Part shown: piece after piece, positions 15,417 to 36,000 of the stretch
Numbering within the stretch: position 1 is the stretch's first letter
How the letters are laid out: each line of letters opens with the position of its first letter
Source: an uncultured Actinomycetota bacterium
GTDB taxonomy: Bacteria; Actinomycetota; Actinomycetes; Mycobacteriales; Mycobacteriaceae
Direction: 5' to 3'
DNA: 64,000 nt
Assembly (NCBI GenBank): GCA_963836495.1
Contig: CAWIJT010000003.1
Location: 457,667-521,666, forward strand
Position numbers and translations under genes: made by a program
Notes under the pieces: generated by a model
The model's input: the letters and a program-made list of their open reading frames with translations, nothing else
What the model was told of the DNA's origin: nothing
Databases searched by the model: none

Positions 15417-15551
15417 GTGTCGTTGGTGGCCACAGACGCCGAGCCGCGGTTGCGCTGCCTGATGGCGTGTGGCGCGAATGTCCCTCGCGCGCAGGTGCTT
15501 TGCAGCTCACGGGAGTCTACTGAGGTGGCAGGTATGGGACGCGTTCGATGA
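15417..15551 (+). CDS. Putative 44-aa small protein or leader peptide coupled to the flavoenzyme gene
   Basis: GAGGAGG at 15405-15411, GTG at 15417, MSLVATDAEPRLRCLMACGANVPRAQVLCSSRESTEVAGMGRVR; TGA overlaps ATG 15548. Confidence 0.35.
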   Translation: MSLVATDAEPRLRCLMACGANVPRAQVLCSSRESTEVAGMGRVR

Positions 15552-17365
15552 TCGAGATGGCCATCGTGGGGCTCGGCTCGTGGGGTCTGTGCGTCATGGA
15601 GCGGACGGTGAACCGGGCCAGGCAGTTGGGGACGCCCGTACGGCTGCACCTGATCGAGCCCGCTCAGCTGGGAGGCGGGGTCTACTCCACCGAGCAGCCC
15701 GACTTCCTGGTGCTCAACAACGCCTGCGGTCAACTCTCCCTCTACGCCGCTCCCGACGGAGACGCTCTTCCGCCGTACGCCGTGGGCCTACACGCGTGGG
15801 CAGTGGTCCGCGGCTACCGCTGGGTGGGTTACGAGTGCCGCATCGGCGCCGGCGGTGACCCCATCCTGCCCACCGACTACCTGCCGCGGCGGTTGATGGG
15901 CGAGTACCTCGCCTGGTTCTACGACACGCTGGTGTCCTACGCCCCGCCCAACCTGGAGATCGTCCGGCACTACGCGGCCGCCGTCGACATCTCTCCGGCT
16001 CTGCGAGGGCGCGAGGCGGTGCTGCTCGACAGCGGCACCACCCTCACCGTCGACCACGTCGTGCTCACTTCGGGCCACACCTTCAACGACGAGCCCGGTG
16101 CCGACGGCGGCGTGCACTACTTGCGGCCCTACCCCATCGACTACTTGGACCAGCGCGCCCCGGCCGGATCCTCGCTGGCAGTGGCCGGCATGGGGCTGGT
16201 CGGCTTCGACGTCCTGACCGCGCTCACTATCGGACGCGGCGGGACCTTCGAAGACCGGTGCGACCGGGCCGACCGCTTGCGTTACGTGCCCTCGGGCCAC
16301 GAGCCGACCATCACCCTCTATTCGCGCTCGGGGGCTCCGTACTGCGCCAAGTCGGCTACCGGTGTCGACCCCTACGGCCAATACCAGCCGGTGGTGTGCA
16401 CCCCTGAGGAGTTCGCGGCGCTCACCAACCCGGGTGCGTCGCCGTTGCGGCGGCACGTGGACTTCCGGGCCGAGCTTCTCCCGCTCGTCTTCGCCGAGAT
16501 GCAGGCGCGCTACTACATCCAGGCCGCGTCGCTGGCCGGCGGCGACGTGGAGTCGACCGAGGTCCGCAACGTCCTCCGCCAAGGCTGGGTCGACGGGTAC
16601 TACGAGAAGGCAGTCGACGTTCTCGAGCCGCGCTACGGGCGCTTTGACCCGGCCACCCACCTCTTCGCCGGGGCAGACCGCCACTACACGTCGGCCGCCG
16701 ACTATCAGGGCCAGGTTTACGACATGATCGAGGACGACCTCACCGAGGCTTTGCGGCCCGGAGGGAGCGCGGTCAAGGCCGCCCAGGAGGTGCTGCGGAT
16801 CCTGCGGGACCAGCTGCGTTCGGTCATCGAGTTCGGTGGCCTGTCCCTCGACTCCTACGTCGAGTTCCAAGCCAACGTCCGGGGCCGGATCAACCGGCTC
16901 GAAGCGGGCGTGCCACCCATGCGCTCCCAGCAGCTACTGGGGCTGCTCGACGCCGGGGTGGTGCGCATTCCGCTCGGACCGAGCCCACAGGCGGTCGCCT
17001 GCCATGAGGGCGTCCGCCTGAGTTCCACGGTGCTCGACGAGCCGACAGCGGTGACGGCCGGCGAGGTGGTGCGGGGCTATCTCGACATGCCCTCGCTGGC
17101 CCGGTCTGGCTCGCCTCTGCTGAACCGCCTCTACGCCAAGGGCAGGCTGACCCAGCTCAGCTACGGTGACACCCCCGTGGGCAGCGTGGCCATCAACGAG
17201 GACTTCCACCCCTACGACACCGAGGGCCGGCTCCAGCCCAACCTCTCGGTGCTGGGCGTGCTCACCGAGGGGGTCCGTTACTTCACCCACTATCTGCCCT
17301 CGCCGCGCAGCCGCCTTCGGGCCGTCTACGACGCCCAGGCGTGCGTCGAGGCCGTGATCGGCTGA
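15548..17365 (+). CDS. FAD/NAD(P)-binding protein, CreE/FzmM-like flavin-dependent N-oxygenase family
   Basis: 605 aa; GLGSWG FAD motif, LVLNN, YLPRRLMGEYL, DHVVLTSGH, GMGLVGFD, SRSGAPY, GVPPMRSQQLLGLLDAGVV and GVLTEG follow the motif order of this family. Confidence 0.75.
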   Translation: MIEMAIVGLGSWGLCVMERTVNRARQLGTPVRLHLIEPAQLGGGVYSTEQPDFLVLNNACGQLSLYAAPDGDALPPYAVGLHAWAVVRGYRWVGYECRIGAGGDPILPTDYLPRRLMGEYLAWFYDTLVSYAPPNLEIVRHYAAAVDISPALRGREAVLLDSGTTLTVDHVVLTSGHTFNDEPGADGGVHYLRPYPIDYLDQRAPAGSSLAVAGMGLVGFDVLTALTIGRGGTFEDRCDRADRLRYVPSGHEPTITLYSRSGAPYCAKSATGVDPYGQYQPVVCTPEEFAALTNPGASPLRRHVDFRAELLPLVFAEMQARYYIQAASLAGGDVESTEVRNVLRQGWVDGYYEKAVDVLEPRYGRFDPATHLFAGADRHYTSAADYQGQVYDMIEDDLTEALRPGGSAVKAAQEVLRILRDQLRSVIEFGGLSLDSYVEFQANVRGRINRLEAGVPPMRSQQLLGLLDAGVVRIPLGPSPQAVACHEGVRLSSTVLDEPTAVTAGEVVRGYLDMPSLARSGSPLLNRLYAKGRLTQLSYGDTPVGSVAINEDFHPYDTEGRLQPNLSVLGVLTEGVRYFTHYLPSPRSRLRAVYDAQACVEAVIG

Positions 17366-17369
17366 GCAC

Positions 17370-18644
17370 ATGACGGACTCCATGACCGGACGGGCGCGGC
17401 CGTTAGTGGCGGTGGGCTACGGTCCGCGCTGCGTTCCCGTGATGCAGCTGGCCGAAGCCGCCGCCGGCGTCTGCGACCTGCTCTGGATGATCGACACCGC
17501 CGTGCCGGGCATGAGCGAGATGACTGATCTGCTCAACCGGTTCGGGCCCGTCGTCGACCTCAAGGGCATGAGCGCCGAGCAGGCGATCAAGATCATGGTC
17601 GACTGGGAGCCAGACGGCATGACCACCTACCTCGACGCCGGGATGGTCGAACTGGCCTGTGTGGCAGAGGGACTGGGTCTTCCCTTCCACAGCCCGGCGA
17701 CCGCCGCCGCCCTCACTGACAAGGCCCGCCAGCGTCGCGCCATGGCCGACGCCGGAATCGATATGCCGCCCTGCCACCTCATCCGCCCCGACCAGTCCGA
17801 GCAGGAGCTCGGCGCCGTCGAGGCCGAGGTGGGGTGGCCGGCCGTGCTCAAGCCCCGCTCGGCTCAGGGCAGCCGCTACACCTTCCTGGCCCACGACGGT
17901 CCGGAGCTCCAGATGCTGCTCGACACCCTCGGGCCGAGTCGTCCCGAGATGGTTCTCGAGGGCTACCTGGCCGACGATCCGGCCCGCGCCGGCGACCCCT
18001 ACGCCGGCTATGTGTCCGTCGAGAGCCTGGTCGCCGACGGCGCCATCAGCCACCTGGCCCTGACCGGCCGCTTCCCGCCCGCCGGAAACTTTCGCGAGAC
18101 CGGGTTCTTCATCCCCGCAGCTCTCGACGCAGCGAGTCGCGAAGCCGTCCTGGACCTGGCCACCCGGGCGATCGACGCACTGGGGGTGCGCACCGGTTGC
18201 CTGCACACCGAAATCAAGTTCACCCCCGCCGGGCCCCGCATCATCGAGGTCAACGGACGACTGGGCGGCGGTGTGCCCGAGATGCTGGAGCGGGCCGCCG
18301 GGATCAATCTCCTCGACCTCACCTTGCGGGTGGCCCTCGGCGAGCCGCTGTCGGTCGCCGGGCCCGTCGCCACCGACCGCATCGGCTACCGATTCTTCCT
18401 CCAGCCGCCGACCGTCTCGGCCACGGTGACAGCCATCGAGGGCATCAACGACTTCAGCGACCGCCCCGTGGTCGACACGGTGAGCGTCCACCAGGGCCCG
18501 GGTGCCGCCCTCGACTGGCGGGACGGCTCCGGCAACCACATCGTGGCCGTGGTCGGCTCGACCGACGACGAGGAGCAGTTGCAGGCCGCCTACCGGCTGC
18601 TGCACCAGGAAGTCACGGTCACCTATACCGACGTGAGGTACTGA
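17370..18644 (+). CDS. ATP-grasp ligase (L-amino acid ligase-like)
   Basis: TDKARQR, LKPRSAQGS, LEGYL, VSVES and HTEIK..GPRIIEVNGRLGG motifs. Confidence 0.85.
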   Translation: MTDSMTGRARPLVAVGYGPRCVPVMQLAEAAAGVCDLLWMIDTAVPGMSEMTDLLNRFGPVVDLKGMSAEQAIKIMVDWEPDGMTTYLDAGMVELACVAEGLGLPFHSPATAAALTDKARQRRAMADAGIDMPPCHLIRPDQSEQELGAVEAEVGWPAVLKPRSAQGSRYTFLAHDGPELQMLLDTLGPSRPEMVLEGYLADDPARAGDPYAGYVSVESLVADGAISHLALTGRFPPAGNFRETGFFIPAALDAASREAVLDLATRAIDALGVRTGCLHTEIKFTPAGPRIIEVNGRLGGGVPEMLERAAGINLLDLTLRVALGEPLSVAGPVATDRIGYRFFLQPPTVSATVTAIEGINDFSDRPVVDTVSVHQGPGAALDWRDGSGNHIVAVVGSTDDEEQLQAAYRLLHQEVTVTYTDVRY

Positions 18645-18645
18645 G

Positions 18646-19581
18646 GTGGGCGTTCAATTGGCCGAGGGACCAGCGCGGTGGACGTGTGCCCTGGTCAACA
18701 ACATGCCCGACTCCGCATTTTGCGCCACCGAGCGACAGTTCGTCGGCCTGCTGGAGGCCGGGTCCGGCGGCGACACGCTCGCCCTGACCCGACACACGAT
18801 GGCCGGGGTGCCGCGGGGCGAGCGGATTGCGTCCCAGATCGCCGCCGAATACCGACCCCTCGAGGACATCTTCACCGAACCCCCGGACCTGCTGGTGGTC
18901 ACCGGTGCCAACCCGATCGAGTCCCGTATCGAAGACGAGCCCTACTGGGCTGATCTGCACGGTCTGCTGAAGTGGGGTAGCGAGAACGTGCCGGCGATGG
19001 TGCTGTCGTGCCTGTCCGCCCACGCCGCGCTGGCCGTCTTCGACGGTGTCGAACGGACCACGCTGCCGGCCAAGTGCACGGGAGTGTTCGCCCAGGAGGC
19101 CGACCGGACTCACCCGCTGGCCGCCGGGCTCTACGGTTCCGTCGTCCTGCCGCATTCGCGGCTGAACACCGTGCCCCTCGAGGCAGTGGTCGACGCGGGC
19201 TACTCGGTGGCGCTGCAGTCAGGGCAGGTCGGGTGGAGTGTGGTCACGAAGACGGTAGGTGAGTGCGAGGTCATGCTGGTGCAGGCCCATCCCGAGTACG
19301 ACCCGTCGAGCCTCGTCCGCGAATACGTCCGGGATGTACGCCGCTACGTCGGCCACTTGCGCGACGAGTTGCCTTGTCTACCAACAGATTGCGCGACCGG
19401 TCCAGATTGGGATGCGCTCTGCCGGATGCATGCGCGGGTGGTCGGCGGCGAGCGGAACGCAGACCTGGTAGCCGCGTTCCCGTTCGACGACATCTGCGTC
19501 CGGGCTCCCTGGCCGTGGCGGGGGACGGCCCAGCGCCTGTACGCCAACCTGTTGGGCACTATCCCGAGAAGGAGCGCCTGA
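18646..19581 (+). CDS. metA: Homoserine O-acyltransferase of the MetA (GATase-like) fold
   Basis: LVNNMPD..ATERQF, VTGA..EDEPYW, nucleophile SCLSAHA, QAHPEYD His-Glu dyad. Confidence 0.85.
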   Translation: MGVQLAEGPARWTCALVNNMPDSAFCATERQFVGLLEAGSGGDTLALTRHTMAGVPRGERIASQIAAEYRPLEDIFTEPPDLLVVTGANPIESRIEDEPYWADLHGLLKWGSENVPAMVLSCLSAHAALAVFDGVERTTLPAKCTGVFAQEADRTHPLAAGLYGSVVLPHSRLNTVPLEAVVDAGYSVALQSGQVGWSVVTKTVGECEVMLVQAHPEYDPSSLVREYVRDVRRYVGHLRDELPCLPTDCATGPDWDALCRMHARVVGGERNADLVAAFPFDDICVRAPWPWRGTAQRLYANLLGTIPRRSA

Positions 19582-19584
19582 GCC

Positions 19585-20871
19585 ATGCACGACGAGACCA
19601 TCGCCATCCACGGCGGCTACACATCCGACGGGACGCGGGCCGTGGCGGTCCCCATCTACCAGACCGTCGCCCACGACTTCATCGACGCGGCCCACGCCGG
19701 TGCCGTGCTCGACCTGGAGACGCCGGGCTTCCACTACAACCGGCTCAACAACCCGACGCTGGACGTCCTCGAACAGCGCATCTGCGCGCTCGAAGGCGGA
19801 ACGGCGGCCCTGGTGGTGGCCTCCGGCATGGCCGCCGTCAGCTACGCCATCCTGACCGTGGCGGCGGCCGGCTCGAACATCGTGGTGGCTCCCCAGCTCT
19901 ACGGGGCCACCTTCACCTACTTCGCCCACGTGCTGCCCACGCTGGGCATCGAGGCGCGCTTCGCCGTCGACGACCGTGCCGAGTCGATCGCCCCGCTGAT
20001 AGACGAGAACACCCGCGCGGTGTTCTGCGAGACGATCGGCAACCCGGCCGGCAACATCGTCGACCTCGAGGCCGTTGCCGAGGTGGCCCACGCGGCCGGC
20101 GTGCCCCTCATCGTCGACAACACGGTGGCCACGCCGCTGATGCTCAAGCCCTTCGAGCACGGCGCCGACGTGGTCGTCCACTCGCTGACCAAGTTCGTCG
20201 GCGGCCACGGCACTACCCTCGGCGGAGCCATCGTGGACGGCGGCCGGTTCCCGTGGGCCGACCATCCTGACCGCTTCCCCAATTTCAACCAGCCCGAGCC
20301 CGCCTTCCACGGCGTCGTCTTCGCTCGCGACTTTCCCGAGCGGCCCTTCACCGTGCGGGCCCGCTCCACCCAGCTGCGCAACAGTGGCGCCACCCTGTCG
20401 CCCTTCAACGCCTTCCTGCTCCTGCAGGGCCTCGAGACGATGGCGGTGCGGCTCGAGCGTCACGAGGCCAACGCCCGGGCCGTGGCCGAATACCTGGCCG
20501 CCGATCCCCGGGTGGCCTGGGTGAGCTTCGCCGGCTTCCCCGACCATCCGTATCACCACCTGGTCGAGCGCTACCTGCACGGACGGGTGCCGTCGATCAT
20601 CACCTTCGGGGTCGACGGCGGCTACGACGCCGGCCTGGCGTTCTTCGATGCGCTTCAGCTCATCAAGCGGCTGCTCAATCTGGGCGACGCCAAGTCGCTG
20701 GCCATCCACCCGGCCTCGACCACCCACCGCCAGCTGTCCGGCGAGGAGCTGGCGAAGGCCGGTATCCGGCCGGAGACGATCCGGCTGTCCATCGGGATCG
20801 AGCACATCGACGACATCGTCGACGACATCGACCAGGCTTTAGACAAGGCCATGGCTGGCCGGGTCCACTGA
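19585..20871 (+). CDS. metY: O-acylhomoserine sulfhydrylase / aminocarboxypropyltransferase (MetY family)
   Basis: VPIYQT, YNRLNNPT, ETIGNP, DNT, PLP-Lys motif HSLTKFVGGHG, IHPASTTH, RLSIGIE. Confidence 0.9.
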   Translation: MHDETIAIHGGYTSDGTRAVAVPIYQTVAHDFIDAAHAGAVLDLETPGFHYNRLNNPTLDVLEQRICALEGGTAALVVASGMAAVSYAILTVAAAGSNIVVAPQLYGATFTYFAHVLPTLGIEARFAVDDRAESIAPLIDENTRAVFCETIGNPAGNIVDLEAVAEVAHAAGVPLIVDNTVATPLMLKPFEHGADVVVHSLTKFVGGHGTTLGGAIVDGGRFPWADHPDRFPNFNQPEPAFHGVVFARDFPERPFTVRARSTQLRNSGATLSPFNAFLLLQGLETMAVRLERHEANARAVAEYLAADPRVAWVSFAGFPDHPYHHLVERYLHGRVPSIITFGVDGGYDAGLAFFDALQLIKRLLNLGDAKSLAIHPASTTHRQLSGEELAKAGIRPETIRLSIGIEHIDDIVDDIDQALDKAMAGRVH

Positions 20872-20878
20872 GCGCACC

Positions 20879-22657
20879 ATGCCATTGACGACTGAGGTGT
20901 CGACGTATTTCGGACCGCCTGATTCACCCTTGTTCGGGGTGGTGCATCTGCCGGTCGACAACCAGATCAGGGGCGGGGTACTGATCTGTGGTTCGCTCGG
21001 CAAAGAGGGGATGGACAGCGTCCGGCTGCAACGAATCCTCGCCGACAGCCTGGCCCGCCGCGGTTTCGGCGTGCTGCGTTTCGACTATCTGGGCTTGGGC
21101 GATTCCGCGCACTCGCAGGTCCGCGATGATGCGGTGGCCAACTGGGTGGCGAGTGTGGGCCACGCACGCGACTACCTCGCGCTGATCGGCGCGCAGTCGG
21201 TGACCGCGATCGGCGTACGTGCCGGCTGCCTGATCCTCGACGAGTACCTGGCCCGGTCCCTTGCCGAATCCCACCCGGTCGACTCCGTGGTCTACCTCGA
21301 TCCCGCCGGAACGGGCAGGCGCTATCTGCGTGAGCACACCACGCTGTTCCGCTTGTCGGCGGGGGAGGACGCCGCGACGCCCGGTGAAGTGTTGATCATC
21401 GGCGGCCGGTTCAGTGACCATGCCGCCGCAGAGTTCGCCGGGCTGCGGATGCATCCCAATCCGGTAAGCGTCGCGGATGTACTTCTGGTGGGGCGACCGG
21501 GCGATACCGACAAGCACGTCACTGCTCTGGCGTCGGCCGACGGCGTTGATGCGATCACCACCGGCGGTCTGGCTGAATGCGCACATCCGCTGGCGATACC
21601 GCTACCGATCCCTGTCACCGCGGTCGATTCGATCATCGACTGGATCGACGACAAGGTTCCCACTGGTACCCGTCAGGCCACACCCCGGTACGTGACCACG
21701 GTGACGATGCCGGCAGAAGGGCCCGACGGCGTCGACGTCGTCGAAAGCATCGAACGGATCGAGCCGAACGGCCTGTTCCTCATCCGCACGCAGCCCGAAC
21801 GCTCCAGCAGCGCGCCGGTGAAGACCGTGTTGTTCTTCGTGTCGGCCCACGACTTGCACGTAGGACCCGCCCGGGAATGGGTCGAATTGTCGCGTCGCGT
21901 TGCAGCGGCCGGGTCACCGGCGGTGCGCTGGGACCCGTCAGGACAGGGCTTGTCGGGACCGATCAGGCGGAACCCTTGGCGCACAGTGTATTCCAAGGCC
22001 GACATCACCGACTCGATAGCGGTGGCCGAACATGCGCGCCGAGGCGGCGGCGAACTCCAGCTTGTCGGAATCTGTTCCGGCTCGTGGTACGCCGCTCACG
22101 CCGCCCGCAGCATCGGTGGACAGTCGGCGATCCTGGTCAACCTGGTGGCGTGGAATTGGCGCGTCACCCCCACCGTGATGGAGCAGCAGTATTTCCGGCA
22201 GAAAACGCTGACTGCGCATGCGGCCAACGACAGCGGCGCCGGCCGCTCCGAATCACAGTGGACGATGCGCCTCGAAGCACGTATCCGTCTGGGACAGAAC
22301 CAGACGAAAAGCCTTATGCACAAGCACCTCCCGCGGTTCGTCCTGCGGGTGTTGAGCTGGATCGGGCTGATATTTCTGCCGGAGGATGTTCTGACCACGC
22401 TTGCCCGCCGTGGAACCGACGTGACGGTGATCGCTTGCCCCGAGGACGCGGAGCAGTTCACTGCCAAAGGCGGTCGGGCAGCGCTTGACCGGCTGCAGTG
22501 GACGTCGCAGCCGCCCCGCCTGATCACCACACCCACCGGCGATCATTCGGCCAATCACCCGGCGATATTGGCAGCGATCCGCGCCGCCGTTCTTCCGGCA
22601 GCAGCTACCTCGTCTAGTGCTGAGCGCGATCATGACCAGATAGGAGTCGGCGCTTGA
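20879..22657 (+). CDS. Tandem alpha/beta-hydrolase-fold protein (hydrolase-2/hydrolase-1-type fusion), putative acyltransferase
   Basis: N domain RFDYLGLGDS with elbow GVRAG (no Ser); C domain RWDPSGQGLS with elbow GICSG and late GDHS. Confidence 0.7.
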   Translation: MPLTTEVSTYFGPPDSPLFGVVHLPVDNQIRGGVLICGSLGKEGMDSVRLQRILADSLARRGFGVLRFDYLGLGDSAHSQVRDDAVANWVASVGHARDYLALIGAQSVTAIGVRAGCLILDEYLARSLAESHPVDSVVYLDPAGTGRRYLREHTTLFRLSAGEDAATPGEVLIIGGRFSDHAAAEFAGLRMHPNPVSVADVLLVGRPGDTDKHVTALASADGVDAITTGGLAECAHPLAIPLPIPVTAVDSIIDWIDDKVPTGTRQATPRYVTTVTMPAEGPDGVDVVESIERIEPNGLFLIRTQPERSSSAPVKTVLFFVSAHDLHVGPAREWVELSRRVAAAGSPAVRWDPSGQGLSGPIRRNPWRTVYSKADITDSIAVAEHARRGGGELQLVGICSGSWYAAHAARSIGGQSAILVNLVAWNWRVTPTVMEQQYFRQKTLTAHAANDSGAGRSESQWTMRLEARIRLGQNQTKSLMHKHLPRFVLRVLSWIGLIFLPEDVLTTLARRGTDVTVIACPEDAEQFTAKGGRAALDRLQWTSQPPRLITTPTGDHSANHPAILAAIRAAVLPAAATSSSAERDHDQIGVGA

Positions 22658-23893: not shown

Positions 23894-24520
23894 TCAGGCC
23901 GTGGCGGAACGCAACTCGACGCGCTGGCGAAGAAACGCGGCAAGGCGCAGCGGGATGGCAACGAGGCTCAATAGGGCGAACGGCAGATATTCGGCGGCAT
24001 AGAGCCACTGATGTGGCTTCTGGTTGAGTGCACCCAGCACGAAATCCCGGCCGAAGGCGATCAAGATGTACGTCGTGGCCAGGAAGAGTAAAGGCCGCCA
24101 CAGCCGCCCGAGTCTGCGTATTCCGATTCCGAAGGACAGCAGCACCAGCAGGCAGGTGAAGAAGAGGGCGACGAGGAAGAACCACAACAACCCGCCCTGC
24201 AGCGGAACCTGGCCGATGAGGACGCCGAGCCAGACGACCAAACCGATATGGGCCAGCAGCGCCGCAGCGAAGGCAAGGCCCGAGGCTCGCGCCTGACGAG
24301 CCAACCCGCCGAAGGCCGGCCCGAACAGGACGGCCAGCGCGCCGCCGGTATAGGAAAGCCAGAAGAAGAGAAATGACCAGCGGGCCGTGACGCGCACCCC
24401 GAGCCGAACGCTATCGAGACCGGTTCCGCGCACGACCAAGACGGCCACGGCAAGTGCGAGCGCACCGCCCAACGCGCCCGCTATCCACGCCCAGGTCGGA
24501 TCATGTCTGGGCGTCACCAC
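23894..24520 (-). CDS. Integral membrane protein (about 6 TM), weakly ferric-reductase-TM-like
   Basis: Hydrophobic helices; RVTARWSFLFF..SGLAFAAALLAH pattern; GTG 24520 has GGAG upstream. Confidence 0.55.
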   Translation of the reverse strand: MVTPRHDPTWAWIAGALGGALALAVAVLVVRGTGLDSVRLGVRVTARWSFLFFWLSYTGGALAVLFGPAFGGLARQARASGLAFAAALLAHIGLVVWLGVLIGQVPLQGGLLWFFLVALFFTCLLVLLSFGIGIRRLGRLWRPLLFLATTYILIAFGRDFVLGALNQKPHQWLYAAEYLPFALLSLVAIPLRLAAFLRQRVELRSATA

Positions 24521-24941
24521 ACTCCGCTCCGGCGTCGGGCGGATTGCAGACGACGAGGACAACGGCCATCGCGTGGCAATCGGCGTGCGAGAGCGACAAA
24601 GACGAGCTACGCCAGCCTTGCTGCTGCGCCCGCTCGGCGAGTGATCCGCTCAGCCGGAGTAGCGGCAGCGGACCATGTCGCGTCACCTCGATCTCGCGCC
24701 AGGGAAACGCCATGTCGGGTTCTGCGAATACCTTGATCACTGCTTCTTTGGCGGCGAATCGAGCCGCCAGTCGTTGCACCCGGTTATTGCCCTGGCAGTC
24801 GCTGATTTCGCCGGCCGTGAAGATTTTGCGCAGGTAGCTTTCCCCGAACGCGGCTAGCGAGTTCTGGACATCCTCGAGGGGCACGACATCGCATCCGACC
24901 CGAACGCGATGTCCGTCGACCTCACGTGGCGGGGCGATCAC
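24501..24941 (-). CDS. acpS: AcpS-type holo-ACP synthase (4'-phosphopantetheinyl transferase)
   Basis: VGCDVV, IFTAGE, LAARFAAKEAVIK and SLSLSH motifs; adjacent to an ACP. Confidence 0.88.
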   Translation of the reverse strand: MIAPPREVDGHRVRVGCDVVPLEDVQNSLAAFGESYLRKIFTAGEISDCQGNNRVQRLAARFAAKEAVIKVFAEPDMAFPWREIEVTRHGPLPLLRLSGSLAERAQQQGWRSSSLSLSHADCHAMAVVLVVCNPPDAGAECGDAQT

Positions 24942-25186
24942 GCAACCGCTTTGACCAGGCCTTGAACTACCTGCTCGATGTTGGCGACGGAAGCGAACGT
25001 GGACTTCTTCAGCACTTCGTCGGGGAACTCGATGTCGAAGGCATCCTCGAGGGCAAGCATGACGTCGACCGACGCATGCGACGTCAGGCCGAGGTCGTAG
25101 AGGTCGGCCTGATCGTCCACCTCGCGTGGATCCACCGCCATCCGGCCATGAGCAACTAAGACGTCACGAATTTGGTCCTGAATCAC
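24938..25186 (-). CDS. Stand-alone acyl/aminoacyl carrier protein (82 aa)
   Basis: C-terminal part of track ORF 24938..25759; GTG 25186 after GAGGAAAG; DLYDLGLTSHASVDVMLALEDAFDIEFPD carries the Ppant Ser. Confidence 0.88.
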   Translation of the reverse strand: MIQDQIRDVLVAHGRMAVDPREVDDQADLYDLGLTSHASVDVMLALEDAFDIEFPDEVLKKSTFASVANIEQVVQGLVKAVA

Positions 25187-26130
25187 GCTTTCCTCATTTC
25201 TGCCGTGGTTGAACTGATGAGTTCGGTATGGGGTTCGACGGGCGGAACGTAGGTTCCGGGTGCCTTGAGCCGCTTGCGGGCGACGCGGCGGTAGCCGTAG
25301 AAGTCCGATATGTACGCCGGGCTGTCGTAGAGCCAGTCCAACGGCTCCCGCATGTCGTCGACGTAGCCGATCGAATACGAGCCACGCTGGTAGCCCATCA
25401 GCCTCAGCAGCCCCTCGGGAAGAGTGCGGGCGATCTCGGGCGGGCAAGCGAGATACTGGTTTTCCTCCTGCCGCAGCCACCCGAGCGAGTAGCCCACGTT
25501 CATCCCGATTCGGCTGGTCTCGGTGGTGTTGGCGCCGCCGCCGTGAAATATCGAGCCGGTATACAACAGGACTGAACCCTTGGACATGACCGCCGGAGAG
25601 GACAGCGCACAGTCCACGTCGTCGGGATCGTCCTCCCACCGGTGGCTGCCCACCACCATCCGGGTCGCGCCCATCTCCTCGGTGAAGTCGGTCACGGCCC
25701 ACATGGTGGCGACCTCGGCTTCGAAGCCGGTGGGGAAGTGGTAGCGATCGAACGACCACTGGTCCCGATGAATCATCTGCGCCGGCTCACCGGGTCCGAT
25801 GGTCACCAGCTGGGTCAGGTCGATCTGGAAGGTGCTGGCGTGGTCGCCCAACACCAGGTCCAGCGTGTCGATGATCGTCGGATGAGTGATGAGCGAGCGA
25901 GCGGTCGGCGAACGGGCGATCAAGGCGCCGGTGCGACGGGTGGTCTCGCCCAGGAAGTCGGTGTTGCCGCCGCTGGTGATAGCCAGGTGCGGTTCGAGCT
26001 CGGCCCGTATCTGATCCATCGTGCCTGGTGATGCGAGGTCTGCAATGACCACACAGCCGTCTTCGTTGAGCACGTGCGCAATGTCCGCCGGCGAGGAACA
26101 CGAACCGACTGTCCGTACTGCTATTGGCAT
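25183..26130 (-). CDS. Phytanoyl-CoA dioxygenase-family Fe(II)/2-oxoglutarate dioxygenase
   Basis: HRD...H facial triad (QMIHRDQW; SIFHGGG), GATRMVVGSH, WLRQEENQYL. Confidence 0.88.
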   Translation of the reverse strand: MPIAVRTVGSCSSPADIAHVLNEDGCVVIADLASPGTMDQIRAELEPHLAITSGGNTDFLGETTRRTGALIARSPTARSLITHPTIIDTLDLVLGDHASTFQIDLTQLVTIGPGEPAQMIHRDQWSFDRYHFPTGFEAEVATMWAVTDFTEEMGATRMVVGSHRWEDDPDDVDCALSSPAVMSKGSVLLYTGSIFHGGGANTTETSRIGMNVGYSLGWLRQEENQYLACPPEIARTLPEGLLRLMGYQRGSYSIGYVDDMREPLDWLYDSPAYISDFYGYRRVARKRLKAPGTYVPPVEPHTELISSTTAEMRKA

Positions 26131-26215: not shown

Positions 26216-27148
26216 GTGCCAGTACAGATGCTTCCGTTCCGGTTTGGCATACACGCCGCCGTCGCGCCGACGATGTCGGCGTGGCGGGATCAGGCCCGCA
26301 TGGCCGAGGATCTCGGTTACTCGGCGCTCTACATTCCTGACCACCTGGACGATCAGTTCGGGCCTCTGGTAGCCACGACCGTGGCCGCTGAAGCGACCTC
26401 CACCCTCCACGTGGGGCCGCTCGTGTTGAACAACGACATCCGCCACCCGGTGGTGTTGGCGAAGGAGATCGCCACGCTCGGCCTAGCGGCCGAGGGCCGG
26501 GTCGAGGTGGGTCTGGGGGCGGGCTGGCTCCGGACCGATTACGAGCAGGCAGGGATCGAGCTCGACGAACCGGCTGTCCGGGTGGACCGGCTGGCTGAGA
26601 GCCTCGCGATCATGAAGACGCTGTGGAGTGAGGGGAAAGCGACGTCAACAGGAACGCATTACACCGTGCGAGATGCCCGTTGTGATCCTCGCCCAACATC
26701 GCCACCTCGCGTCATCGTCGGAGGCGGAAGCAGGCGAATCCTCACGGTTGCCGGTCAACAAGCGGACATCGTGGGCGTGAACACCAGCCTGGCTTCGGGC
26801 CAGAAAGGCGGCGACCTGGCGAGCCAGGCCACCTTCGATCATTTCGACCGCTGCTTGGCATGGGTGCGCGAGGGAGCCGGTGACCGCTTCGATTCGATCG
26901 AGCTGCAGATCGTGGCCTTCGCCACCAGGGTCGTCGCCAGCAGTCGTGCTGCCGCTCGGACCGCAACGATGCTCGGCCTTCCGGGTGAGGATGCGCTGGA
27001 GCTTCCGATCGTCCTGATCGGCACCGAGGACGAACTGTGCGAGCGGCTTGTGCAGCGCCGCGAGAGGTGGGGCTTCACCAACATCGTCGTTCCCGGCGAG
27101 GCGATGGAGTCCTTCGCGCCGGTGGTCGCCCGGCTTGCGGGCACCTAG
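26216..27148 (+). CDS. F420-dependent LLM-class oxidoreductase (MSMEG_2516-like)
   Basis: AEDLGYSALYIPDH, LVLNNDIRHPVVLAKE, GLGAGW and VGGGSRRIL motifs; alternative ATG at 26228. Confidence 0.85.
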   Translation: MPVQMLPFRFGIHAAVAPTMSAWRDQARMAEDLGYSALYIPDHLDDQFGPLVATTVAAEATSTLHVGPLVLNNDIRHPVVLAKEIATLGLAAEGRVEVGLGAGWLRTDYEQAGIELDEPAVRVDRLAESLAIMKTLWSEGKATSTGTHYTVRDARCDPRPTSPPRVIVGGGSRRILTVAGQQADIVGVNTSLASGQKGGDLASQATFDHFDRCLAWVREGAGDRFDSIELQIVAFATRVVASSRAAARTATMLGLPGEDALELPIVLIGTEDELCERLVQRRERWGFTNIVVPGEAMESFAPVVARLAGT

Positions 27149-27152
27149 GCCG

Positions 27153-28673
27153 GTGACCTTGACCGGCGTACTCGGCGCGGTGCTGGACCACGCCGATCAA
27201 GCCCCGGATCGGCCCGCGGTCAAGGACCTGGATCGCGCGTTGACCCGGGGCGAATTGCGCGCCGCCGCTGGGCGAGTTGCCGCCGGCCTGGTTCAAAAAG
27301 GCGTCGAGCCCGGAGATCGGGTTGCGCTGCTGATCGGTAATTCCGTGGACTTCGTGGTGGCGGCGCTGGGTTGTCTGTGGGTGGGCGCCACGTTCGTTCC
27401 GCTGGCGATCAGCGATCCAGATCACCGCCGCGCACAGATCGTCTCGGACTGCCGGCCCGCACAGGTGATCACCGGCGGTCCGGACCACGCGGTGCCGTCG
27501 GGATTTCCCGTCGGCACACCGTGGACCACGGTCGCGGCCTTGAGCGCAGGAGGTGGGCCGCCGCCGACACCTGTAACCGGGCCGATCGCCTACATCATCT
27601 ATACGTCGGGTACGACCGGCATCCCCAAGGGTGTGCAGATCAAGCCGGAGGCGTTTTTCACGGCGGTCGAAGCATGCGCTGACGCGGTGGGATTGGCCGA
27701 CGATGACCGGTGCCTGTGCGTTTCGCCGGTGCATTTCGACGGGTCCTTTTCTGCCATCTTCCCCCCGCTCGTCCGCGGCGCCGCCCTCGTCATCCCCGAC
27801 CGGGAAGCCCTGCTTTTTCCGCGGAGGTTCTTCTCGATCGTCGCCGTCGAGGGGATCACGGCGACCAGCTTCTCTCCCAGCTATCTGCGGTTGCTGCGGT
27901 CCAGCGGCCGTCTGGCGGCATTGGCCGACACCCCGCTGCGCGTGATGGCGCTGGGCGGTGAAGCTCCGTCCACGGCCGATATCAGGGCGGTGTGGGCCGC
28001 CAGCCCGGGACTGCGAATAGTGAACCGCTACGGCCCGACCGAGACCACCATCGCGGTTGCCCACCTGGACCTGACCCCGGAGTTGCTCGACGCCGGGCTG
28101 GTACCGATCGGTCATCCTCATCCTGGGAGCTCGTTCTACCTCGTCGATGAGCACGGATGTCCAGTGGATCGTCCGGGAGTGGTGGGCGAGCTGTACGTCG
28201 GCGGCCCGCAGTTGATGGCTGGCTATCTGCACGATCCTGTGCATAGCGCGGCTGTGCTGCGGACGGACGTCATCGACGGGACCACTGTCTACCGGACCGG
28301 TGACCTGGTCTTCCGCGACGACCGGGGCAACTACGTCTACGCGGGCCGTTCGGACCGCGTCATCAAGCGACACGGTGTGCGGATGTCGCTGGTCGAAGTG
28401 ACCGAGGCGCTGGGTGGTACCGACGGGGTCGCGTCCGCGGCGTGCACGACCTTCGACCTGGATGGCGCTCTGGGGGTGGTCGCGTTCGTGGTGCCCAACG
28501 GCGAGCTCACTTCTCTCGCCGTCCGCCGGGCCGCCAGCGAGCGACTGCCGGCGACGATGCTGCCCGATCAATTCGTCGTGGTGGCCGACTTGCCGTTGAC
28601 GTCTTCCAGCAAGGTCGACGAGCGACGGCTGCTGGCGGAGGCCGGCTTGTCTGCACCGAACGCCGGGGCCTGA
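27153..28673 (+). CDS. Stand-alone amino acid adenylation (A) domain protein
   Basis: GTG 27153; A3 [15 protein letters not shown]4 HFDGSF, A5 NRYGPTE, A7 YRTGD, A10 SSKVDE; no C or T domain. Confidence 0.88.
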   Translation: MTLTGVLGAVLDHADQAPDRPAVKDLDRALTRGELRAAAGRVAAGLVQKGVEPGDRVALLIGNSVDFVVAALGCLWVGATFVPLAISDPDHRRAQIVSDCRPAQVITGGPDHAVPSGFPVGTPWTTVAALSAGGGPPPTPVTGPIAYIIYTSGTTGIPKGVQIKPEAFFTAVEACADAVGLADDDRCLCVSPVHFDGSFSAIFPPLVRGAALVIPDREALLFPRRFFSIVAVEGITATSFSPSYLRLLRSSGRLAALADTPLRVMALGGEAPSTADIRAVWAASPGLRIVNRYGPTETTIAVAHLDLTPELLDAGLVPIGHPHPGSSFYLVDEHGCPVDRPGVVGELYVGGPQLMAGYLHDPVHSAAVLRTDVIDGTTVYRTGDLVFRDDRGNYVYAGRSDRVIKRHGVRMSLVEVTEALGGTDGVASAACTTFDLDGALGVVAFVVPNGELTSLAVRRAASERLPATMLPDQFVVVADLPLTSSSKVDERRLLAEAGLSAPNAGA

Positions 28674-29488: not shown

Positions 29489-30883
29489 ATGGAAGCCATG
29501 GTGACCCGCGCGACGCCGGACGAACTCTACAAGGAACTGATCCAGCGTCAGCGCGCTGAATTACAGGACGCCTACATGAAAGGCGTGCGCCGACTGCGAT
29601 GGGATAAGGAGCGTCTCGCCGCAGAACGCCAACGGCGTCTGCGGGAGCTGCTGGTGCATGCCGCCGACAACTCCCCGTTCTGGCGGGAACGACTGGCGGG
29701 CCACGATCTGGCCAACTTCACCGAGGCTGACCTCCCGTCGCTGCCGATCCTGACCAAAGACGAGATGATGACGGAGTTCGACCGGATTCTCACCGTCCCT
29801 GGTCTGACGCGAGCCCGGATCAAAGAACACATCGATTCGCTCGACGGAGATCGGTACATCGATGACGAGTACCGGGCAATCGTCAGCTCTGGATACGCGG
29901 GAACAGAGGCGTACCACGTTTACGGCTGGGACTCGTTCATCACCTTCGTGATGCAGGGCTCGCGGTGGACCGGGCGACGCGGCGAAGATCCGGCGGCGGT
30001 CTTGGCGCAGTGCTTCAGTTGCAGCGCCCGGCATGAGTCGGGGGCGTTCTACGCGTTCAGCAGCTTCCAGGGCGGCGGTCCGACGTCGCACTGCTTCGAC
30101 GCCACGCTCCCCCTGGACGTCATCGTCGACCGGCTCAACAACATCCGACCCTCGGTGCAGGCCCTCCAAGGATGGCCGAGCCTCATCTGGGAACTGGCGT
30201 CGGAGGCCAGGCATGGACGACTCACCATCACACCGACCTGGGTCAGCGTGGCGGGGGAGCTCTGCACCGAGCCCGTGCGAGAGGCCGTGCGGTCCGCCTG
30301 GGGCATCGAGGCTTCGGAGTTCTGGGGCTGTTCAGAGGGCACCTACGCGTTCCCCTGCGGCGTCGGAGAAGGCATGCACGTCGCCGACGACCTGGTCATC
30401 CTCGAGCCGGCGGATGCCGACGGCAACGTCGTGCCCTACGGGCAGCCCGCGGATCGGATGCTGTTGACCAACCTGTTCAACCCGGTACAGCCGCTGATCC
30501 GCTACGACCTCATCGACGCGGTGACCATGACCGACGAGCCGTGTCCGTGCGGTTGTGCTCACCGGCGCATCACATCGGTCAACGGTCGGATCAACGGAGC
30601 CTTCGAGTACGACGGCGGTGCGGCGGTGCCCCGCGCGGCCGTCGAGCAGACCGTCGTCGCCACCCCTGGCGTCGTCAACTTCCGCGTGCGCAAGACGCAA
30701 GGTGGTGTCGACGTGTCCGTGGTGACCGACGGTTCATCCGACCTGCGGCAGCTGCGGACGGAATTGGTCGACGTGCTCGGCCGGCACGGCGCACCGGAGC
30801 CGGATGTCGCTGTGCAGGAGGTCGATTCGATAGAGCGGCTGTCGCGGGGAAAGACCAAGCAGTTCGACACCCAGGCGATCTAG
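29489..30883 (+). CDS. Phenylacetate-CoA ligase (PaaK/CapK)-family adenylating enzyme
   Basis: SPFWRERL, LPILTKDEM, WGCSEG and QPLIRYDLID motifs; divergent P-loop SSGYAG; alternative ATG at 29498. Confidence 0.8.
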   Translation: MEAMVTRATPDELYKELIQRQRAELQDAYMKGVRRLRWDKERLAAERQRRLRELLVHAADNSPFWRERLAGHDLANFTEADLPSLPILTKDEMMTEFDRILTVPGLTRARIKEHIDSLDGDRYIDDEYRAIVSSGYAGTEAYHVYGWDSFITFVMQGSRWTGRRGEDPAAVLAQCFSCSARHESGAFYAFSSFQGGGPTSHCFDATLPLDVIVDRLNNIRPSVQALQGWPSLIWELASEARHGRLTITPTWVSVAGELCTEPVREAVRSAWGIEASEFWGCSEGTYAFPCGVGEGMHVADDLVILEPADADGNVVPYGQPADRMLLTNLFNPVQPLIRYDLIDAVTMTDEPCPCGCAHRRITSVNGRINGAFEYDGGAAVPRAAVEQTVVATPGVVNFRVRKTQGGVDVSVVTDGSSDLRQLRTELVDVLGRHGAPEPDVAVQEVDSIERLSRGKTKQFDTQAI

Positions 30884-33035: not shown

Positions 33036-36000
33036 TCACTCTGTGGTTTCTTGTGCTGCTGTGGACTGTCTATTCAATTGCTGGCCGAGACTTTTTATGG
33101 TCGGCGCGTTGATGAGGGTGGGTAGCGCGAGGTGGGCGTCGAGGGCTGTGTTGATCGCGGCGATCGCCCGCATCGCCGAAAGCGAATCCCCGCCCAGATC
33201 GAAGAACGAATCTTCGACCCCAACTCGGTCGACACCCAGCACCTCGGCCCAGATGCCTGCCAGGACCTGCTCGATCAGCGTGGCCGGAGCGCGATATTCG
33301 CCGCCGTTGGCCTGGTGTCCGGGTGCCGAGATCGACGTGGTCAGCGGCTGGGCAAACAGCGCCTGATCGTCCCGCTCGTCTAGGTCTATCGATGACAATG
33401 GCTGCTTCGGATCACCGGCCATGGTCACCAACACCCGCTGAAAGCGCTCGATCAGCGCTTCGATGACGGGTGCGTTGAAAAAATCCGCGCGATACTGAAC
33501 TCGCAACTCCAGTTCGTTGCCAGGCACGGCCTGGATCGTCAGCGGGTAGTGGTAGTAGTCGCGGTTGGTGAGCCCGGTAACGACCAACCCGTCTGCGCCT
33601 GACAAGGCCGCTGCGTCGGTCGGGTAGTTCTCGTAGACGATAACGGTGTCGAACAGTCTTTCGTGACCGGTGGCGCGGTGGATGTCGCTGAGAGCCAGGT
33701 GCTGGTGTTCGAGGGTCTGATTGTGGTTGTTGTGGAGCTGGTTCAGTAGGTCGGTGGTGGTCGTCGCCGTGTCGATGGTGGCCCGTACCGGGACCGTGTT
33801 GATCAACAGCCCGATCATCGATTCCGCGCCGACCACCTCATCCGGGCGTCCCGAGACGACGGCGCCGAAGGCGACATCGTGATGGCCGGTCAGCCACATC
33901 AGCAGGGTTGCGAAGGCGCCCTGCAGCACGGTGTTGACGGTGGTGTGTGACGAGCGGGCCAACTCGGCAACCGCCCGGGTGGTGTGCTCGGACACCCAGA
34001 ACGACGCCACGTCTCGCGGTCCCACCCCTAACCGGTCTGGCGGGCCGATCAAGGTCGGGGTGTCAAAACCGGCCAGCACGTCACGCCACGCGGCGCGGGC
34101 GGCTTCGTGGTCCCGATCGGCCAGCCAGGTGATGAACTTGCGGTACGGCGCGGTCGCGGGTAGGCGCTGCCCGTAATAGCTGGCAAATACCTCCCGCAGC
34201 ATGTTTGGCAGTGACCAGCCGTCCAGCACGATGTGGTGATTCGTCAGTACAAACCGGTGCTGATCTTCTTCGGTGCGGATCAACGCCGCCCGGAAGGCGG
34301 GCTCGTCGGCGAGATTGAACACCGCGGCGCGTTCGGCGGCGCACACGCGCTGGATGTCCTCATCAAGGTCCCGGTCGCCTACGCTCAGATCGATAAATCG
34401 CCAGGGCGTCGTGGGATCGGCCGGGATGATCTGAACCGGCTGGTCAAACTGTTCGGAGAATCGGGCCGCTAGGTGTGGATGCCGGGTGACCACCGCATGT
34501 AGCGCGTCGCGGAGCCGGTGCTGATCAAGCCGACCGTTCAACGCGATATCCAGCTGCACTGCATACACATCGTCGCCACCAGCGTGCGCGGTGTTGGCGT
34601 GAAAAAGTAGCCCTCGCTGAAGGGGCGTCAACGGCAAAATATCGGCGATCTCATATTGCCGGCAAAGCTCGTCGATCTGCTGCTGGCTCAGCCGGGCGGG
34701 CGCGATATCCGACGGCGTCAACCCGCCACCACCCCGTCTGACGTATGCGCAGATTCCGGCCAGGGCTTCAAACCACAACCGACTCATCCGACTGACCTGC
34801 GCGTGATCGAGCGCCGACGGCGCCCATGTCCAGCCCGCCTGCAGGTGCGGGCCGGTGTCGGTATCGATGGTTCCGGCATTGAGCGCCACCGTGTGCATCA
34901 ACGGCATGGGGATAGCGGCGGCGACCCCGGTCACCGACGAAGCATCCTGACAAACCTGCCAAGCCTGACCAGATGCCGCGGCCGCCCCTGCACCCAGGCG
35001 CCCCAGGTAGTTGAACCCGATCACTGGATCGGATCCGGCCAGATCAACATCGGGGTTCAGATAACGCAGCAGACCGTAGGTCAACGGATCTGGCAGGGCG
35101 CGCAGCTGCTCTTTGGCGGCTTTGATCACCGCGCCCAAACCCGCATCACCGGCTACCACCTGCACCCATGACAGCCCGCCCACCGCCAACGCCACCGGAT
35201 ACTTGGTCGTGAACCATCCGACCGTGCGCGACAGGTCAACATCGGTGCCCAGCTCCTCTTGGCGACCGTGACCTTCCACATCGATACCGACCGGCGACGC
35301 GCCAGTCCCTAAAAACTCCGCCAGCGCCAACCCGAACGCGATCAACAAAATGTCGTGTATCCCGGCATGAAACGAGGTCGGCACTTCACCGAGCAGCATC
35401 TGGGTGGTCTCGGCATCGAGCAGCACCGACAATTGCCCCGCGCCCGCATAGGTATCCACCTCTGGACGCACCGCCGGCAGCGCGGGAGGAATTGCCGCGG
35501 CCTGCCGCCAGGCGTCGACCTGTTCCACTACTTCCCGGCGGGTTGCATGCTCAACCAACAACGACGCCCAGCGGGCAAATGACATCCCCGGCGCGGGCAG
35601 ATCCACCTGCTGCCCTCCACGATGCTGAGACCAGGCAATGTTGAGGTCCTCCAGGAGAATTCGCCATGACACCCCGTCGACGGCCAGGTGGTGAATGATC
35701 ACCACCAGCTGAGCCGTGGAGGTCGCCCACAGCGCGCTCAACATCACTCCCGCAGCCGGATTCAACCGCGAGCGTGCCGCCACCACCGCGTCGTCAGACA
35801 CCACGTCCACTGTTTGCAGGCACGCGCGCGCATCCACTGAACCGGCATCGGGCACCTGCAGCGACCAACCCCTGGCGCCGTCGTCCTCGACCCGCACCCG
35901 CAACATGGCATGCCGATCCAGTAAGGCCTGCAACAGCACCACTACGTCGGCCTCGGTTACCCCCGCGGGGGCCTGCAACAGCACAGTCTGGTTGAACTCG

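Follow-up and report, generated by a model that had tools for sequence, protein, structure and literature searches.

What does a protein made of two alpha/beta-hydrolase domains, neither of which carries a GxSxG elbow, do beside a stand-alone acyl carrier protein (ACP)? This question is raised by a stretch of 64,000 nucleotides (the window) on contig CAWIJT010000003.1 (positions 457,667 to 521,666) of assembly GCA_963836495.1, which comes from an uncultured bacterium of the Mycobacteriaceae. The gene for this tandem hydrolase (P0001; 592 aa, ATG start) lies at 20879..22657 on the + strand of the window. A sequence-only reading had proposed that the protein resembles exosortase-associated hydrolases 2 and 1 and acts as the Cys-acyltransferase of a Dlt-like relay, in which an adenylation (A) domain loads the ACP and the hydrolase decorates a sugar or a lipopeptide. 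Our analysis confirmed its observation and partly supported its interpretation. The tandem Arg/Cys hydrolase stays with the carrier while the rest of the cassette is exchanged, which makes it the prime candidate for the unloading step. On balance, we favor the tandem hydrolase as the off-loading enzyme of a dedicated carrier-protein system, which would work through a Cys acyl-enzyme.

Architecture of the tandem hydrolase

The open reading frame is a genuine coding frame, with a GC content at third codon positions (GC3) of 0.77 and a codon-position GC pattern like that of the other genes of the window (window GC, 65-68%). The sequence-only reading had noted GVRAG in the N domain, GICSG and a late His in the C domain, and no GxSxG, and all of these were read in the sequence. 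GVRAG (residues 112-116; Arg114 codon, 21218-21220) lies in the N-terminal, hydr2_PEP-like domain (residues 1-266; 20879..21676, + strand), with Arg114 at the nucleophile elbow. GICSG (residues 397-401; Cys399 codon, 22073-22075) lies in the C-terminal, hydr1_PEP-like domain (residues 267-592; 21677..22654, + strand), which also contains Asp523 (codon, 22445-22447) and, within TGDHS, the late His, His556 (codon, 22544-22546). GxSxG was present in neither half. Since the N terminus has no signal peptide and the protein has no transmembrane segment, the tandem hydrolase is presumed to be cytoplasmic.

The AlphaFold2 model, built from a 124-sequence alignment (mean pLDDT 92.4, pTM 0.93), contained two complete alpha/beta-hydrolase domains. 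In the C domain, Cys399 follows strand beta5 (393-398), Asp523 follows beta7 (514-519), and His556 follows beta8 (547-550), which is the canonical order of nucleophile, acid, and histidine; a helical lid covers about residues 430-510. Alignment with the Protein Data Bank (PDB) matched Cys399 to the Ser of the GSSMG elbow in hydrolase 8trf. In the N domain, Arg114 is placed at the elbow directly after beta5 (108-113). No conserved His was found after the last strand of this domain; most relatives have Asp, Glu, Gln, or Asn at position 236. As judged from the model, a nucleophile-acid-His triad is present in the C domain in residue order and absent from the N domain.

Both elbows are conserved. 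Among 122 full-length relatives (28-53% identity), Arg114 and Cys399 were each found in 119, and the three exceptions to Cys399 have Ser. His556 was conserved in 123 of the 124 alignment rows, residue 523 was Asp or Glu in all 124, and the elbow Arg was invariant in 121 of 121 stand-alone N-type proteins. Because they are kept in about 97% of the 122 relatives, the Arg and Cys elbows are a family signature and not a product of chance. Other near-invariant residues are C37, E43, R67, D69, Y70, S76, D141, and R151 in the N domain and G329, P330, R332, W334, R339, R350, D352, D378, and N421 in the C domain. The Cys-His-Asp triad suggested for the C domain thus gained support from conserved residues (Cys399, Asp/Glu523, and His556) at the canonical topological positions of the predicted fold. 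Sequence and model together indicate that the N domain is probably a catalytically dead pseudo-hydrolase and that the C domain carries a putative Cys active site.

General fold searches were less specific. Pfam gave weak generic alpha/beta-hydrolase matches in both halves. Foldseek against the PDB returned generic single-domain esterases and lipases (TM score about 0.3 on the query), with LuxD among the fold matches, and this search gave no solved structure of such a tandem.

Curated NCBIfam models were more informative. The two best matches of the whole protein were TIGR03101 (5e-18, 65.6 bits) and TIGR03100 (7e-16, 58.4 bits). When the halves were scanned alone, TIGR03101 was the best match of the N half (4.4e-14, 52.6 bits), and TIGR03100 was the sole curated match of the C half (1.5e-6, 27.7 bits). 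The curated cut-offs are 202.75 bits for TIGR03101 and 168.45 bits for TIGR03100, and the scores were 3-4 times too low for membership. In addition, the exosortase model TIGR02602 had no match in the genome of the window (93% complete). The proposed resemblance to exosortase-associated hydrolases 2 and 1 holds for the top curated matches and for the order of the domains; however, because the scores are far under the cut-offs and the genome has no detected exosortase, the tandem hydrolase is regarded as a relative of TIGR03101/TIGR03100 and not as a member. The expected arrangement, in which hydrolase 2 and hydrolase 1 are neighbours with an ACP and an adenylate-forming ligase close by, was found here in fused form, in the order 2 then 1, with the ACP 2.3 kb and the A domain 4.5 kb from the tandem hydrolase.

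The family searches yielded no protein above the TIGR03100 or TIGR03101 cut-offs in this genome and 14 control genomes. A profile search with the C halves gave tandem proteins only and no true TIGR03100 member, and a search with a stand-alone N-type protein of Variovorax gave only the unnamed family of that protein. The relatives in Mycetohabitans, Burkholderia gladioli, and Variovorax gave the same pair of TIGR03101 and TIGR03100 matches.

Coupling to the carrier protein and the two locus contexts

The ACP, the AcpS, and the free A domain that the sequence-only reading had placed beside the tandem hydrolase were all found in the window. The stand-alone ACP (24938..25186, - strand; 82 aa, motif DLGLTSH) passed NF005480 (PRK07081) with 96.3 bits against a cut-off of 72. 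An AcpS-type phosphopantetheinyl transferase is encoded by the cluster itself (24501..24941, - strand). The stand-alone A domain (27153..28673, + strand) is of the nonribosomal peptide synthetase (NRPS) type, has no thiolation (T) domain, and is the presumed loader of the ACP.

To relate the hydrolase to this carrier, both were searched in the same 301 genomes of the family (GTDB rank). Both were present in 99 genomes and neither in 197; the hydrolase alone was found in one genome, which is 60% complete, and the ACP alone in four (Fisher's exact test, 1e-73, uncorrected for shared ancestry). The hydrolase was single-copy in nearly all of these genomes. When hydrolase and ACP were on the same contig, they lay within 10 kb of each other in 63 of 88 pairs and within 35 kb in 85 of 88. 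The ACP, and often AcpS, stayed beside the hydrolase across 30% to 81% identity, and the loader alternated between an amino acid:[carrier protein] ligase (aa:CP ligase) and an A domain. The carriers beside aa:CP ligases in related loci are of the same type (NF005480) as the ACP of the window. With only 5 discordant genomes against the 99, comparative genomics strongly backs the proposed dependence of the hydrolase on the carrier.

Close homologues number in the hundreds in environmental Mycobacterium; all are uncharacterised, and their names (lysophospholipase, pimeloyl-ACP methyl ester carboxylesterase, or dienelactone hydrolase) were assigned automatically. A search of 1.8 billion cluster representatives gave 294 representatives at E <= 1e-30, mostly full-length tandems. 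The contigs of distant relatives from metagenomes were short and revealed little of the gene surroundings. In several distant relatives, the tandem is preceded by a fused Wzx-type flippase (P0163, P0184, and P0233) or followed by a fused GT4 glycosyltransferase (P0167 and P0264). Further fused relatives have extra hydrolase domains or long unannotated extensions (among P0210, P0238, and P0125).

We collected 79 Mycobacteriales loci (30-81% identity) by a search with a 16-row alignment and compared their flanks by tblastn and purpose-built hidden Markov models (HMMs). Two context types were distinguished. Type A, to which the window belongs (62% identity and above), contains the hydrolase, ACP, AcpS, a PhyH-family protein, a membrane protein, an F420 oxidoreductase, the A domain, and a PaaK-like enzyme, together with FAD, ATP-grasp, MetA, and MetY genes and, in 13 of 34 loci, a cytochrome P450. 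Its content is kept, and the gene order is heavily shuffled between loci; in several of them, PhyH, ACP, AcpS, (membrane protein), and hydrolase follow each other on one strand. No sugar genes were found in this cluster type. Type B takes in a pair of Mycobacterium loci (59-61% identity), almost every locus in the 30-49% range, and two short contigs from metagenomes. Its cassette consists of an aa:CP ligase, an ACP, an acyl-CoA-dehydrogenase-like (ACAD-like) protein, DUF1839, AcpS, and often GH2. The ligase passed NF005479 (412.9 bits, cut-off 357) and matched PDB 4h2w at 7.5e-65. This cassette lies inside Wzx/Wzy polysaccharide loci with a priming sugar transferase, glycosyltransferases, and Wzz, and the hydrolase gene commonly stands directly after the ligase and directly before Wzx.

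Related arrangements were found outside the Mycobacteriales. On pBRH01 of Mycetohabitans rhizoxinica (Betaproteobacteria), an operon encodes an acyltransferase_3 protein, an ACP, an ACAD-like protein, an aa:CP ligase, DUF1839, GH2, and the tandem hydrolase. In B. gladioli, the hydrolase gene lies between flippase and polysaccharide export genes. In Variovorax paradoxus, two adjacent split genes, the first with GARLG and the second with GMCSG, match TIGR03101 and TIGR03100, respectively.

In a maximum-likelihood tree of the hydrolases rooted with betaproteobacterial sequences, type A formed one shallow clade nested inside type B, and its closest sisters were the two type B loci at 59-61% identity (L042 and L043). 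Relics of the type B cassette were detected in type A loci, namely, a 158-aa DUF1839 fragment between ACP and AcpS in L001 (12801-13277), DUF1839 fragments in L015, L041, and L044, and weak ligase fragments in L010, L011, L019, L022, and L024. These relics fit a recent replacement of the ancestral cassette. No aa:CP ligase (NF005479) was found in the window or in its whole genome. DUF1839 was absent from the window by the purpose-built HMM; it was also undetected in the genome, which is weaker evidence since the same search found none in the control genomes. The cluster of the window has lost the ligase, the ACAD-like protein, DUF1839, GH2, and every polysaccharide gene.

Sequence comparison thus indicates that the gene of the window descends from the hydrolase of an aa:CP-ligase/polysaccharide cassette. 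One Mycobacterium lineage appears to have swapped the tRNA-synthetase-like loader, the ACAD-like protein, DUF1839, and the polysaccharide context for an A domain, oxygenases, and an amino-acid-building operon, and of the old cassette only the ACP, AcpS, and the tandem hydrolase, three parts in all, appear to have been retained. With the aa:CP ligase absent from the genome and DUF1839 undetected there, no enzyme of the hydrolase fold or of transferase-like character other than the tandem hydrolase remains with the ACP. The loss of DUF1839 from this clade, with the hydrolase retained, speaks for a function of the hydrolase that is bound up with the carrier itself.

Could the hydrolase nevertheless be a carrier-independent esterase, lipase, or polysaccharide de-O-acylase, which lies near the ACP only because both belong to envelope-polymer loci? 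The generic fold matches to esterases and lipases and the automatic names of the homologues point in this direction, and several loci depart from the common pattern. In genus g29, hydrolase and ACP are about 0.5 Mb apart in three genomes and on separate contigs in seven others (for example, G175, G162, and G289; G210 carries the ACP only). The fetched flanks of 7 of 30 distant loci (30-49% identity) contained no such ACP, although two of these seven were cut by a contig end. In B. gladioli, the only ACP at the locus belongs to a neighbouring fatty-acid desaturase cluster. On the other hand, the co-occurrence of hydrolase and one ACP family in 99 of the 100 genomes that carry the hydrolase would be difficult to account for if the two were not functionally linked. 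The trio was retained when the clade of the window lost every polysaccharide gene, the protein has no signal peptide and appears cytoplasmic, and adjacency to the aa:CP ligase reaches distant metagenomic contigs. A carrier-independent role is thus highly improbable because of the near-complete co-occurrence and the proximity of hydrolase and ACP.

The proposed off-loading step

The reaction that we propose would run as follows. The A domain would adenylate an amino acid, probably built or tailored by the products of surrounding genes, and load it onto the phosphopantetheine arm of the free ACP, primed by the AcpS of the cluster. The (amino)acyl group, bound to the ACP as a thioester, would then move to Cys399 of the C domain, with His556 and Asp523 completing the triad, to give a thioester acyl-enzyme. 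From this acyl-enzyme, an acceptor nucleophile would receive the group in place of water or at a higher rate than water. The N domain would be non-catalytic, and the Arg-bearing pocket of its former active site may bind the acceptor or the pantetheine phosphate of the carrier; this role is suggested by the presence of an invariant Arg in a domain without a triad. Three elements of this scheme are inferred: that the ACP gives up its acyl group by transfer, what the N domain does, and which acyl group and acceptor take part. The off-loading reading is favored because the trio is constant, the Cys-His-Asp/Glu triad is intact, the location is cytoplasmic, and no other hydrolase-like or transferase-like protein stands beside the ACP in type A.

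For the ancestral cassette, we consider a lipid-linked sugar repeat unit at the cytoplasmic face the most likely acceptor. A lipid-linked sugar before flipping is suggested as the type B acceptor because of the fusions to Wzx and GT4 and the position of the hydrolase gene next to Wzx. The decorated sugar of the sequence-only reading is accordingly a plausible acceptor for the wider family, with its polysaccharide loci and fusions, but not readily for the cluster type of the window, in which sugar genes are missing.

Two features of the system weigh, together with the departing loci described above, against acyl transfer. Type A, which does encode a small polytopic membrane protein, has no obvious genes for making an acceptor. 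Moreover, a Cys nucleophile would be compatible with hydrolysis as well, as judged by analogy with dienelactone hydrolase, which is a Cys-His-Asp hydrolase. The tandem hydrolase might then be a hydrolytic ACP thioesterase with water as its sole acceptor, which releases a finished free acid or clears mis-primed or stalled acyl groups. Such an enzyme would be coupled just as tightly to ACP and AcpS, and carrier, AcpS, and thioesterase would form a coherent trio for carrier maintenance. Some fused relatives give DLH-family Pfam matches, LuxD, an acyl-ACP thioesterase/transferase, is among the fold matches, and the ATP-grasp and PaaK-like ligases of the cluster could use a released free acid. Type II thioesterases, however, are single-domain Ser enzymes of about 240 aa, whereas the protein of the window is a tandem with Cys and did not match PF00975 even at E <= 1. 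Simple hydrolysis would leave unexplained why a 590-aa tandem keeps a second domain with an invariant Arg, the Wzx and GT4 fusions indicate a partner on the sugar side, and the replacement of Ser by Cys in the alpha/beta-hydrolase fold is typical of transferases (SyrC, CmaE, and PhaC). We consider hydrolysis alone unlikely.

The neighbouring genes of the window are organized in three units. On the + strand, the tandem hydrolase gene holds the fifth place in a compact run of six genes. The four genes upstream (15548..20871, + strand), conserved only with the cluster type of the window, encode an FAD/NAD(P)-binding protein, an ATP-grasp ligase, a MetA-type homoserine acyltransferase, and a MetY-type pyridoxal-phosphate enzyme. 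The sixth encodes the cytochrome P450 (22654..23880, + strand), whose start is overlapped by the 3' end of the hydrolase gene by 4 bp (translationally coupled). The hydrolase gene starts 8 bp after the stop of the MetY-like gene. A functional tie between the two inferred from this spacing was ruled out, since the hydrolase gene adjoins AcpS, ACP, or P450 elsewhere and the order is shuffled. Of the NCBIfam models, the one best matched by the ATP-grasp protein (17370-18644, + strand) was PRK02186, an ATP-grasp/argininosuccinate-lyase fusion of 890 aa, over its N-terminal part (2.4e-33); the scan of neighbouring genes revealed no accompanying lyase.

In the window, the ACP operon runs toward the tandem hydrolase gene as a separate, convergent transcription unit. 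Its first gene encodes a PhyH-family Fe(II)/2-oxoglutarate oxygenase (25183..26130, - strand), whose stop is overlapped by the GTG start of the ACP gene. The 222-aa polytopic membrane protein (23894..24562, - strand) has no Pfam or NCBIfam match, is conserved only in the cluster type of the window, and is often encoded between AcpS and the hydrolase; a diverged DUF1839, ACAD, or ligase relic was ruled out for it, because the profile comparison gave a probability below 1%. The third unit, on the + strand, contains the conserved F420-dependent luciferase-like oxidoreductase (26216..27148, TIGR03621 above cut-off), the A domain, which stands in place of the aa:CP ligase, a methyltransferase, and the conserved PaaK/F390-synthetase-like adenylating enzyme (29489..30883).

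Some type A loci have additional genes. An asparagine-synthase-like amidotransferase is encoded between the A domain and MetY in L022 (16834-18732) and four other loci, and the window has none. In several (L016, 6186-7628; L017, 7777-9039; and other type A loci), the region immediately upstream of the hydrolase gene repeatedly encodes a DUF4185 protein, a right-handed beta-helix protein, and an RsbU-type PAS/SpoIIE/HATPase regulator. The DUF4185 and beta-helix proteins are of kinds typical among glycan-acting enzymes and may have survived from the polysaccharide context.

About 10 kb farther along, the large NRPS genes begin, and the NRPS at 33036-45563 ends in a condensation-thiolation (C-T) module without an A domain (33039-34649, - strand). 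The window thereby holds a set resembling SyrB1/SyrC/SyrE, consisting of a free A domain, a free carrier, a PhyH oxygenase, a Cys enzyme of the hydrolase fold, and an NRPS with an A-less C-T end, and the hydrolase might be a SyrC/CmaE-like shuttle from the ACP to this terminus or the release enzyme of a terminus that lacks a thioesterase domain. In V. paradoxus VAI-C (L091, 1-16429), an NRPS without thioesterase domain (C-A-T-C-T) is directly followed by a phosphopantetheinyl transferase, the split hydrolase pair, and then polysaccharide export genes, an arrangement which suggests that the NRPS product is handed to the polysaccharide pathway.

Among the 32 type A genomes, a full-length orthologue of the NRPS terminus was present in about 17. 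In five, including that of the window, it lay about 6-16 kb from the hydrolase in differing arrangements (the others of these are L038, L048, L053, and L062), and in most other genomes it was on another contig, some of these contigs being very large. About 12 of the 32 had no terminus orthologue, which leaves an obligate tie to the A-less terminus unsupported. The whole ancestral family, moreover, works without any NRPS, and the PhyH protein is no SyrB2-type counterpart: its HxD motif (IHRDQ) and its resemblance to small-molecule dioxygenases ruled out a SyrB2-like halogenase. Proximity of NRPS and hydrolase is commoner than chance but not obligate, so the shuttle or release role is a minority reading, and we regard it as distinctly unlikely. 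The lipopeptide that had been proposed from the sequence as a target of decoration is not obligately linked to the hydrolase.

Returning to off-loading, a broader version of it is possible but doubtful: the hydrolase-2/hydrolase-1 pair, whether fused or split, might be a general off-loading transferase for one family of stand-alone carriers, in effect a built-in heterodimer. Its Cys domain would form the acyl-enzyme, and the pseudo-domain with the Arg elbow would position the acceptor or the carrier. Just as tentatively, the pair could supply the missing last step of the aa:CP-ligase system, an orphan since 2010, namely, (amino)acylation of a lipid-linked sugar before flipping, and the window would hold a copy of this module captured by a small-molecule or lipopeptide pathway. 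If the tandem hydrolase is a true transferase, it represents a new two-domain architecture for carrier-dependent acyl transfer, in which a pseudo-enzyme is fused to a Cys enzyme, and a way in which bacterial surface polysaccharides are decorated, from which a derived branch would feed a mycobacterial metabolite. If it is a thioesterase only, it is an ordinary release enzyme of unusual shape.

Comparison with known systems

Four known systems bear on the tandem hydrolase. The first comprises the exosortase A system-associated hydrolases of TIGR03101 and TIGR03100, which are uncharacterised and treated in NCBIfam as hypothetical equivalogs. According to the family descriptions, they neighbour each other, an ACP, and an AMP-forming ligase in exopolysaccharide loci, and the same logic of ACP plus AMP-forming ligase governs the neighbourhood of the tandem hydrolase. 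The likeness extends to the best curated matches and their order. Unlike that pair, the two domains are fused in one chain in the window, and the loader is an NRPS-type A domain (an aa:CP ligase in the relatives).

The second is the Dlt system (DltA, DltC, DltB, and DltD), in which an adenylating enzyme likewise loads a small dedicated carrier and the cargo ends on a cell-envelope polymer. The A domain of the window gave a sub-threshold match to DltA (207 bits, cut-off 476). Among the cluster proteins scanned against Pfam and NCBIfam, neither an MBOAT family protein (DltB) nor a DltD was found, and, unlike in the Dlt system, the proposed transfer enzyme is a cytoplasmic protein of the alpha/beta-hydrolase fold. 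The Dlt-like relay of the sequence-only reading therefore survives for the step from A domain to carrier and for that step only.

The third system consists of the stand-alone transferases that act on carriers. SyrC and CmaE reportedly use an active-site Cys (Singh et al. 2007 and Strieter et al. 2007), which lies in a GxCxG-type elbow. These enzymes and CouN7/CloN7, which act from a carrier to the sugar noviose, share with the tandem hydrolase the fold, a stand-alone carrier, and an adenylating loader. CouN7 is a transferase of the alpha/beta-hydrolase fold that moves a carrier-bound acyl group to a free-standing substrate, and CmaE and SyrC move aminoacyl groups from carrier to carrier (PMC8748450). 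In the cluster of the window, we found the same combination of fold, dedicated carrier, adenylating loader, and Cys nucleophile. CouN7/CloN7, CmaE, and SyrC are nevertheless single-domain proteins without a fused Arg-elbow pseudo-domain, and the likeness noted here is one of fold and context.

The closest parallel is the aa:CP ligase cassette, represented by Bradyrhizobium Bll0957 with its carrier and by Agrobacterium Atu2573 (PDB 3mey and 4h2w). A 2010 study reportedly established that these ligases charge dedicated carriers. The published work covers the loading step only; the literature that we searched contained no paper on the fate of the cargo and, for DUF1839, yielded a fold classification only, and we know of nobody who has shown the destination of the cargo of these carriers. 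The ACP of the window is of the same NF005480 type, and the tandem hydrolase is a regular member of the cassette in Mycobacteriales and Betaproteobacteria, and the gene of the window is orthologous to this hydrolase component. The difference lies in the loader, which in the window is an NRPS-type A domain and not a protein matching NF005479. Taken together, these comparisons suggest that the tandem is a widespread, carrier-coupled fusion of a pseudo-hydrolase and a Cys hydrolase, that the copy of the window is probably a derived form with a swapped loader, and that the tandem hydrolase most likely off-loads its ACP.

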